Positions 18,001-21,000 of a stretch of DNA of 64,000 nt are shown in pieces (the stretch's first letter is position 1; each line of letters opens with the position of its first letter). A program made the position numbers. This stretch comes from Escherichia coli O157:H7 (GTDB taxonomy: Bacteria; Pseudomonadota; Gammaproteobacteria; Enterobacterales; Enterobacteriaceae). Location of the stretch: the NCBI RefSeq assembly GCF_013167455.1, contig NZ_CP038328.1, one strand, 5' to 3'.

Positions 18001-21000
18001 ACGCTGGAGATCGAGCAACAAGTTGATAATCTGCCCGCGAATTGAAACATCCAGCGCCGAAACGGCTTCGTCGGCAATGATCACTTTTGGATTCAATGCC
18101 AACGCGCGAGCAATGCAGATGCGCTGGCGCTGACCGCCGGAAAACTCATGCGGGTAACGCCAGGCATGTTCAGGTAACAGGCCCACGCGCTCCAGCAACC
18201 ACGCAACGCGTGCAACCGCTTCTTTACCTGGCAATAAACCGTGTACGCGCAGCGGTTCGATAATCGAATCACCGATGGTCTGACGTGGGTCCAGCGAAGC
18301 GTAAGGGTCCTGAAAAATAAACTGAATATCGCGGCGCAATGCCTGAAGTTTGCCGGGTGACAAGGTATCGATTCGCTGACCGTTAAAGATAATTTCGCCG
18401 CCCTGCGATTCGACCAGGCGCAGCAACGCCCGCCCGGTAGTGGATTTACCGCTGCCAGACTCGCCCACCAGCGATAGCGTTTCGCCAGGCCAGAGATCAA
18501 AACTGACTTTCTCAACGGCATGCACTTCCCGCGTTACGCGATTCAACAAACCGCTGCGCAAAGGAAAACGGGTGACCAGATTACGCACCCGTAAAACAGG
18601 TTCGCCATCCACCACCGTTTTCTGCTCGATGGGGGGGGCCTGTTTCGCTGGATGTTCAAGCGATATCAATGGGAAACGTCGGGGATAATCTAACCCTTTC
18701 ATCGCACCAAGTTGCGGAACAGCAGCTAACAGCGCACGGGTGTAGGGATGTTGCGGTGCATGAAAAATCTGTTCGACGGTACCCGTTTCCACCGCCTCGC
18801 CCTGATACATCACCAGTACCCGATCGGCAATCTCTGCCACCACGCCCATATCGTGAGTGATAAAGATAACGCCCATCGACATCTCTTTTTGCAATACTTT
18901 GATTAATTGCAGGATCTGCGCCTGAATAGTGACATCCAGCGCGGTGGTTGGCTCATCGGCTATCAGCACTGCCGGGCGGCATGACAGCGCCATCGCAATC
19001 ATCACTCGCTGGCGCATCCCGCCAGAGAGTTGATGCGGATAACGTGAAAGAATGGTTTGTGCCTCCGGAATGCGTACCTGATCCAGCATCCGCTTCGCCT
19101 CGACCATCGCTTCTTCACGACTGGCGTTCTGATGCAGACGAATTGATTCGGCAATCTGTTCACCCACAGTAAATACTGGGTTCAGCGATGTCATCGGCTC
19201 CTGAAATATCATCGCCATATCCGCACCGCGCACATGGCGCATTTGTGCAGCGCTCTGCTCGCTAAGTTCAATCACATCACGACTGCGCCGCCGCAACAGC
19301 ATTTTATCGCACTGCACTAAACCGCCCGCCTGTTCCAACAGACGCATCAATGCCAGCGCAGTCACTGACTTACCGGAGCCGGATTCGCCAACAATTGCCA
19401 GCGTCTCACCGCGTTGCAGACTAAAAGAGAGATTGCGGACCGCAGCTATTTTCTGCTGGTCCTGCATAAAGGCAATATTAAGATTTTCAACCGCCAGCAC
19501 ATTACCGGCATCAAGTTCATCACTGTGTGGCAACGGTGTCCCCTTTTTCACGGTAGATACCGGTGGTTGGCGTATCGCCTGCGTAGCCCCAGGCGCGATA
19601 CATTCCTTCGGTGTTAAACGGTAGCGCGACATTCCCTTCATGGTCGATAGCGATTAAGCCACCGCTACCGCCAAGCGCAGGGAGTTTTTCCATTACTACC
19701 CGCTCGCAGGCTTCCGCGAGACTTAATCCGCCGTAATCCATTAACGCGGCGATGTCATATGCCGCCAGCGCGCGGATGAAGACTTCGCCCGTGCCGGTAC
19801 AAGAAACCGCCACACTGGCGTTATTGGCGTAGCATCCGGCACCCACTAAGGGGCTATCGCCAACTCGTCCGGGTAATTTATTGGTCATTCCGCCCGTGGA
19901 CGTGGCTGCCGCCAGATTGCCGTCTAAATCCAACGCCACGGCCCCCACGGTGCCCATTTTCTGTTTTTCATCCAGTGGCGCACCGCTATGGTCGAGGACT
20001 GTTGCCCCTTCCTCGCGCGCTGCCATTAGTTGTTCATAACGCAAAGGCGTGGAGAAAATCTCCGGTGAGACGCGCTCCATGCCATGAGCAAACGCAAAAT
20101 TTTCTGCCCCTTCGCCAATCATCATCACATGCGGGCTTTACTCCATCACCAGCCGGGCGGCAAGAACCGGATTACGCAGATGACTAACGCCCGCCACCGC
20201 ACCGGCTTTCAGGGTGTTACCATCCATCACACAGGCGTCCAGTTCATGCGTTTCATCACGCGTAAAGACGGCGCCAATTCCGGCGTTAAACAGTGGACAC
20301 TCTTCCAGCAGACGCACCGCTTCCGTCACCACATCCAGCGCACTTTCGCCCGCTTCCAGCATTTTCTGCCCGGTTTCAACAATGGCAGACAACGCCTCGA
20401 TGTAGCGTAATTCCTGTTGCAGACTCATCTGCGCGCGGCTAATTGCACCTGCGCCACCATGAATTGCAATGACTGCTTTGCCCATAGTATTCGTCCATTA
20501 AGGGTGGCTCGCCACTTTTGCTATAAATATCAGAATTTTTATGAATTACTCATTCAATTTTTGAATATAGAAAGATGGATATGGCATGTAAAGGCAGGAC
20601 CCAGCGCTACGCCCGAGGTGGCATACAGTCTGTGGCGTTTTTCTGACATAATAGGCAAATTCGATTTTGCCTCCGCAGGAGTGTTTTCATGGAATTTACC
20701 ACCGGATTGATGTCGCTCGACACCGCGCTTAATGAGATGCTTTCTCGCGTCACCCCACTGACCGCCCAGGAAACGCTGCCACTGGTTCAGTGTTTTGGTC
20801 GTATTCTGGCGAGCGATGTCGTTTCGCCGCTGGATGTCCCAGGGTTTGATAACTCCGCAATGGATGGTTACGCGGTACGTTTGGCCGATATCACCTCCGG
20901 ACAACCGCTGCCCGTTGCCGGTAAATCCTTTGCCGGTCAGCCGTACCATGGTGAATGGCCTGCGGGTACCTGCATTCGTATTATGACCGGTGCGCCGGTG

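Follow-up and report, generated by a model that had tools for sequence, protein, structure and literature searches.

The UUG start codon of gsiA inside the 3' end of iaaA in Escherichia coli O157:H7: conservation, a derived 14-nt overlap and putative translational coupling

A ribosome that terminates on one reading frame can reinitiate at a start codon close to the stop codon, whether before or after it, and the junctions of trpE-trpD and trpB-trpA (UGAUG/AUGA) are translationally coupled overlapping pairs. Enterobacterial operons routinely have UUG starts and short overlaps in which the Shine-Dalgarno (SD) sequence lies within the upstream gene, and TTG makes up a few percent of the E. coli starts. 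About 88% of the annotated E. coli starts are ATG (PMC9825163). The iaaA-gsiA pair resembles the two trp pairs in that both genes lie on the same strand and in the same operon, the downstream start is near the upstream stop and the SD is contained in the upstream coding sequence; it differs from them in that the gsiA start precedes the stop by 11 nt, which gives a 14-nt overlap, in that the start is UUG and not AUG, and in that the coupling is here putative. With other UUG-initiated E. coli genes gsiA shares a near-cognate start codon preceded by a good SD at optimal spacing, and has nothing distinctive with respect to them; neither its start nor the overlap departs from known kinds.

The gsiA product is the ATP-binding subunit of the GsiABCD glutathione importer, and iaaA has been described as a member of the gsi operon (PMC10355420). 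In the window, that is the whole stretch of 64,000 nucleotides of E. coli O157:H7 analyzed here, the gene order is iaaA-gsiA-gsiB-gsiC-gsiD, in agreement with the annotation of identical records; the minus-strand open reading frames that follow iaaA encode 623, 512, 306 and 303 aa, and gsiA, gsiB, gsiC and gsiD are all intact. The iaaA-gsiA junction is made up as follows.

19520..20485, minus strand: iaaA (isoaspartyl/beta-aspartyl peptidase), a pseudogene in this strain
17662..19533, minus strand: gsiA coding sequence, 623 codons plus stop (stop at 17664..17662)
19531..19533, minus strand: gsiA start codon TTG (UUG), annotated in K-12 (b0829) and by PGAP, position 1 of NF007613
19520..19522, minus strand: iaaA stop codon TGA, within gsiA codons 4-5
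19520..19533, minus strand: iaaA/gsiA overlap of 14 nt, invariant across eight Escherichia and Citrobacter loci
19540..19545, minus strand: SD-like AAGGGG, with a 6-nt spacer to the TTG and a pairing energy of -7.8 kcal/mol
19546..19548, minus strand: iaaA AAA (Lys) codon where other genera have the stop TAA, from the alignment and the C-termini

Read in the sense direction of the two genes, the junction is ...gaaaaaGGGGacaccgTTGccacacagTGAtgaactt... (in a fuller quotation, ...ggtatctaccgtgaaaaaGGGGacaccgTTGccacacagTGAtgaacttgat...), the plus-strand letters at 19531-19533 being CAA. The first-pass annotation had placed the gsiA start at this TTG, overlapping the iaaA 3' end by 14 nt, and its coordinates and arithmetic are borne out; translation from the TTG to the stop at 17664..17662 also yields the 623-aa GsiA that it had proposed. 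Upstream of the TTG the gsiA frame stays open as far as an ATG at 19641, from which the product would have 659 aa instead of 623. This ATG had been taken to be the sole in-frame one upstream, which needs correction, as there are two, at 19641 (36 codons up) and at 19632 (33 codons up). Further in-frame candidates are GTG 19551 (6 codons up), GTG 19500 (11 codons down) and ATG 19467 (22 codons down).

TTG 19533..19531 is the genuine, conserved and annotated start of gsiA. A non-canonical start at the overlap, one of the two possibilities that had been left standing, finds support in the strength of the SD, in the RefSeq and PGAP annotation, in the NF007613 profile, in the codons and stops of the orthologues and in a switch of the substitution phase. 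When the 20 nt upstream of each of 11 in-frame candidates (ATG, GTG, TTG, CTG, ATT, ATC or ATA) were paired with the 3' end of 16S rRNA, the strongest anti-SD pairing was that of TTG 19533, with -7.8 kcal/mol against -5.7 for the next best; the values for the candidates named above are -1.5 kcal/mol for ATG 19641, -4.8 for ATG 19632, -3.0 for both GTG 19551 and GTG 19500, and +1.9 for ATG 19467. The gsiA frame thus has a TTG with an SD within the 5 to 9 nt range (6-nt spacer), and this SD is better than those of the alternatives. PGAP gives the TTG start in every E. coli record inspected, and gsiA of E. coli K-12 (b0829, formerly yliA; NP_415350.2) has the same TTG and the same 14-nt overlap (867520-867533; in RefSeq, iaaA of MG1655 occupies 866568..867533 and gsiA 867520..869391). 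The 67 nt around the K-12 start are identical to the window, and the K-12 protein, also of 623 aa, has 5 amino-acid differences.

At the protein level, the NCBIfam GsiA equivalog NF007613 (glutathione ABC transporter ATP-binding protein, 623 positions) scores 1375.7 bits against a cutoff of 1077, and its positions 1-623 cover residues 37-659 of the extended open reading frame with no truncation at either end, i.e., the first position of the profile is the TTG. Among homologues of solved structure (Mtb DppD, 8wd9_D; Rv1281c, 8j5q_D; E. coli DppD, 8z1v_C), about 4 residues precede the first conserved strand, which in GsiA is VLAVENL; the leader ahead of this strand is comparably short, about 8-12 residues, when GsiA is started from the TTG, and has about 44-48 when it is started from ATG 19641.

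Orthologues were collected by a scan with one genome per species, which returned 80 loci (Salmonella is absent from these 80), and start codons were compared in the 20 enterobacterial loci whose protein match reaches GsiA residue 1. The codon homologous to the gsiA TTG is a start codon in all 20. Ten of them have TTG (three E. coli, a divergent Escherichia, E. albertii, three Citrobacter, Superficieibacter and Pseudocitrobacter), six have GTG (Enterobacter spp., Lelliottia, Pluralibacter, Siccibacter and an Enterobacteriaceae MAG) and four have ATG (Leclercia, Cedecea and Enterobacter spp. R1 and Ag1). Were the position an internal Leu, Val or Met, one would expect CTN, GTH or ATH codons there too, but NTG alone is seen. 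A purine-rich SD (AGGAG, GGAGG or AGGGG) is found 5-9 nt upstream of the homologous start in all the orthologues compared, and in seven loci (L010, L012, L013, L022, L025, L026 and L027) an in-frame stop occurs 3-12 codons upstream of it, so that a longer GsiA N-terminus is ruled out in those loci. One of them, L010, is without an upstream iaaA and has a GTG start, yet its GsiA has the same N-terminus, (V/M)PHSDQLAARDVLAV.

The pattern of substitutions in eight Escherichia and Citrobacter loci leads to the same point. Of the 64 substitutions in the 150 nt upstream of the TTG, 54 affect the third base of an iaaA codon, which is the second base in the gsiA frame, whereas from +14 to +164 relative to the TTG 61 of 92 affect the third base of a gsiA codon; the 14 bases shared by the two genes are invariant in the eight loci. 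The coding-type constraint in the gsiA frame begins at the start, with the phase switching from iaaA to gsiA across the overlap.

When the literature was searched for an N-terminal peptide or ribosome-profiling data that would fix the gsiA start directly, nothing relevant was returned. In Table S2 of PMC9825163, the gsiA TTG has no initiation peak, either in INRI-seq or in in vivo Ribo-RET; in the cell-free INRI-seq assay, according to the same source, the isolated gsiA fragment (-30..+150) gave no peak in five replicates, while gsiB, gsiC and gsiD gave peaks. The iaaA start was likewise missed by INRI-seq and Ribo-RET, though its ATG is confirmed by N-terminomics: the portion of the TRAINSPOTTER tables consulted contains the iaaA N-terminus (GKAVIAIHGGAGAISR), and in that same portion an entry for gsiA was not found.

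Three of the alternative starts that were considered and rejected are the following.

19639..19641, minus strand: ATG (659 aa), anti-SD pairing of -1.5 kcal/mol, absent in E. albertii
19549..19551, minus strand: GTG (629 aa), without an SD, -3.0 kcal/mol
19465..19467, minus strand: ATG (601 aa), without an SD, +1.9 kcal/mol

Initiation at ATG 19641 or 19632, inside iaaA, would produce a GsiA of 659 or 656 aa with an extension of 33-36 residues, and is highly improbable. No start codon is commoner than ATG, nothing interrupts the frame from 19641 onwards and ATG 19632 has a moderate SD-like pairing (-4.8 kcal/mol), but the extension is not conserved as a protein, with the 54 of 64 substitutions noted above lying at position 2 of its frame (position 3 of iaaA), and it has no counterpart in the NCBIfam model or in the solved homologues. 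Both ATGs are missing in E. albertii and the second is missing in E. coli EC42405, and in seven genera the stops 3-12 codons ahead of the homologous start are in the frame that such an extension would use. Hardly better placed is GTG 19551, which would give 629 aa and has in its favor that GTG is a common bacterial start codon and that it is near the conserved N-terminus; its lack of an SD (-3.0 kcal/mol) speaks against it, as do its counterparts (E. albertii and the divergent Escherichia have GCG there, Citrobacter has GGG), and in the genera whose iaaA stop has no useful frame the site lies upstream of that stop. The missing INRI-seq and Ribo-RET peaks at the TTG (PMC9825163 Table S2) could instead be read as a sign of a start further downstream, where GTG 19500 (612 aa) and ATG 19467 (601 aa) are both in frame. 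We consider such a start very unlikely: the SD pairing of the two codons is weak or absent (-3.0 and +1.9 kcal/mol), the INRI-seq tables as far as available give no alternative initiation site for the gsiA oligo (PMC9825163), and the segment PHSDELD, which is upstream of both, is conserved and evolves in the gsiA phase. In place of ATG 19467, moreover, E. coli EC42405 has an Arg codon and Citrobacter a Glu codon, and a start there would delete the first conserved strand of the ATPase domain, aligned to residues 5-19 of solved DppD.

A different way to account for the unusual codon is that an ancestral ATG mutated in this strain alone, as the first-pass annotation had suggested with an ATG-to-TTG change in this strain. 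The ATG at the gsiA start of the four entries from other genera (Leclercia, Cedecea and Enterobacter spp. R1 and Ag1) would fit this idea, which is nonetheless refuted by the comparison with other strains at 19531-19533 that the same annotation had recommended and that found TTG species-wide. The junction region is 100% identical to E. coli O157:H7 genomes, and all but one of 5426 complete E. coli genomes (5425) contain it; the native 67-mer centered on the TTG is identical in 5129 of the 5425 records, and the same 67-mer with ATG or GTG in place of TTG has no match at ≥99% among the 5425 genomes. TTG itself is present in at least 5355 of the 5425, as counted by a 33-mer search in which every 28-nt seed was forced to span the TTG; about 70 further genomes carry some variant in the central 23 nt. 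Five strains from this variant remainder were inspected and all five have kept the TTG: one has an altered SD (AAAAAGGGG to AAAGAGGGG), one (LF4-1) a C-to-T change further upstream in iaaA, one an A-to-G change in the spacer at -4, one a GAT-to-AAT change in gsiA, and one a CAG-to-TAG change at IaaA codon 321, silent in gsiA, that leaves an overlap of 11 nt. TTG is shared also by E. albertii, the divergent Escherichia, the three Citrobacter, Superficieibacter and Pseudocitrobacter. Any change of the gsiA start codon dates to the genus level or above.

With the start at TTG 19533..19531, the comparison of the iaaA 3' ends shows how the overlap arose. In most genera IaaA ends with ...GIYRE-TAA (or YR-TGA, or YQ-TAA) at 9-13 nt before the gsiA start, within or beside the SD, while in Cedecea and two Enterobacter species the overlap is of 1 nt, in the form TGATG or TAATG, which is the classic form found in coupled pairs. 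In Escherichia and Citrobacter the TAA is replaced by AAA, and IaaA runs on as KG(D/E)(T/S/A)VATQ to a TGA inside gsiA. Loss of the ancestral iaaA TAA extended IaaA by 8 residues into gsiA, hence the 14-nt overlap, which is derived in the Escherichia/Citrobacter lineage, the position of the gsiA start having been fixed throughout.

These elements can be joined in a single explanation, which we hold to be very probable as a whole: an SD-led UUG start at 19533..19531, an overlap derived by stop loss, and an inferred coupling of the two genes. The AAGGGG in the last iaaA codons, with its 6-nt spacer, would direct initiation at the gsiA UUG; the ancestral iaaA TAA within the SD region became AAA, with IaaA reading 8 codons more to the TGA in gsiA; gsiA would be co-transcribed with iaaA from a promoter upstream of iaaA; and ribosomes translating iaaA, or terminating on it, would probably aid initiation at the weak UUG, alongside independent SD-driven initiation. 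A putative translational coupling between iaaA and gsiA is plausible. The junction is tight: in each of the 19 loci that have iaaA upstream, the two genes are at most 13 nt apart or overlap by at most 14 nt. The absence of an INRI-seq peak on the isolated gsiA fragment gives a weak hint in favor of coupling, weak because many true starts are missed by these methods (about 30% of the annotated starts by INRI-seq and about 82% by Ribo-RET; PMC9825163), that of iaaA among them. As to co-transcription, the candidate promoter is the following.

20564..20592, minus strand: sigma-70-like promoter match TTTACA-17-TATATT, 10/12, upstream of iaaA (consensus match only)

The match is weak evidence of a promoter, being one to a consensus only and with 2 such matches found against 3.3 expected, and a consensus scan, a weak tool, returned no promoter-like match between the iaaA start and gsiA.

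Other elements of the junction were considered and set aside. A hairpin that could mask the SD (-30..+18, -9.7 kcal/mol, with the GGGG paired) is neither unusual nor conserved, and thus gives no structural support to coupling via unmasking: the 120-nt local fold at the gsiA start has z = -1.42, and RNAalifold on 17 orthologous junctions found 0 consensus pairs. The Rfam E-value scan of 17000-21000 returned a chance match to SNORD94 alone (21.5 bits against a gathering score of 60). On the plus strand, a terminator-like hairpin at 19521-19538 is treated as due to chance, since it lies antisense to both genes, its T-run is what the A-rich SD region gives on the complementary strand and 6 such sites were found against 3.7 +/- 2.3 expected.

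Unlike its K-12 counterpart, iaaA in the window, which matches O157:H7 100% at the junction, is interrupted by a premature stop codon.

20138..20140, minus strand: premature ochre TAA at iaaA codon 116 (CAA in K-12 and O55:H7)

The gene is tagged by PGAP as a pseudogene with an "internal stop" in a 100%-identical O157:H7 record, and with respect to O55:H7 DEC5A, in which it is intact, a single nucleotide differs, the C-to-T at codon 116. The TAA-bearing iaaA 67-mer is exact in 296 of 5342 genomes and, among the matches listed, these are O157:H7 or STEC; iaaA is an O157:H7-lineage pseudogene. In-frame GTG, ATG and ATG codons 3-5 codons past the TAA could permit reinitiation.

With its iaaA disrupted by one C-to-T change, O157:H7 is a natural setting in which coupling could be tested. 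A stronger form of coupling, in which UUG initiation depends substantially on the iaaA ribosomes (by termination and short-backward reinitiation) and the codon-116 TAA would uncouple gsiA or silence it by polarity, seems to us unlikely.

For the annotation of E. coli, these results confirm the gsiA start given in the databases, and no mutation or misannotation is flagged in this strain. They also provide, as a by-product, a clear account of how the overlap originated, in which the position of the start remained constant while the codon varied among ATG, GTG and TTG. If gsiA is coupled to iaaA, the O157:H7 lineage would be a natural uncoupling mutant; and if gsiA were indeed uncoupled or silenced by the TAA at codon 116, the import of glutathione by GsiABCD would be lower in O157:H7 than in its O55:H7 ancestor, unless reinitiation after the stop restores the flow of ribosomes.

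The overlap of iaaA with gsiA, the gene of the ATP-binding subunit of the glutathione importer, derives from the loss of an earlier iaaA stop codon. At window 19546-19548 (- strand), Escherichia and Citrobacter carry AAA, while other Enterobacteriaceae have the iaaA stop TAA, following ...GIYRE (the loci cited for this stop-codon comparison were L011-L013, L016, L017, L022, L027 and L028, with Salmonella absent from the loci returned). The change of TAA to AAA at the iaaA end lengthened IaaA by 8 residues (KGDTVATQ) and created the overlap with gsiA. A natural variant is found in L088, the locus of E. 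coli 23CRST011 (NZ_AP045770.1; positions 162-172 of the locus), in which IaaA codon 321 is changed from CAG to TAG, making IaaA one residue shorter and reducing the overlap to 11 nt; in the gsiA frame, the change is synonymous (His).

Opposite the gsiA start and its Shine-Dalgarno element (SD), in antisense orientation, is a terminator-like hairpin followed by a T-run (19521-19538, +). The T-run complements the A-rich SD region, and the number of terminator-like sites across the region falls in the range expected by chance. In the neighbouring divergent operon, moeA (20689..21924) and moeB (21924..22673) share a single nucleotide, and this junction (21922-21926, +) is of the classic coupled type.

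The gsiA start at window 19533 corresponds to K-12 position 867520. Neither cell-free INRI-seq nor Ribo-RET (in vivo initiation profiling) shows an initiation peak at the annotated gsiA or iaaA start; for gsiB, gsiC and gsiD, peaks are present in INRI-seq (PMC9825163 Table S2). Predicted folding from -30 to +18 is stronger at gsiA (-9.7 kcal/mol) and iaaA (-8.4) than at gsiC (-6.8) and gsiD (-3.7).

Two features lie within iaaA itself:

20138-20140, - strand: ochre codon (CAA to TAA) at codon 116, inside iaaA (19520-20485)
20120-20128, - strand: in-frame GTG-ATG-ATG, iaaA codons 120-122, 3-5 codons past the premature stop

Apart from the codon-116 change, this iaaA is identical in nucleotide sequence to the intact gene of O55:H7 DEC5A. 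Of 5342 complete E. coli genomes, 296 carry the exact 67-mer with TAA, the matches listed being O157:H7 or STEC. PGAP labels iaaA a pseudogene with an internal stop, and gsiABCD, 3' of the interrupted gene, are all intact. Speculatively, reinitiation at codons 120-122 might yield a C-terminal IaaA fragment of 200-202 aa, and by such reinitiation ribosome traffic to the gsiA junction could conceivably be regained.
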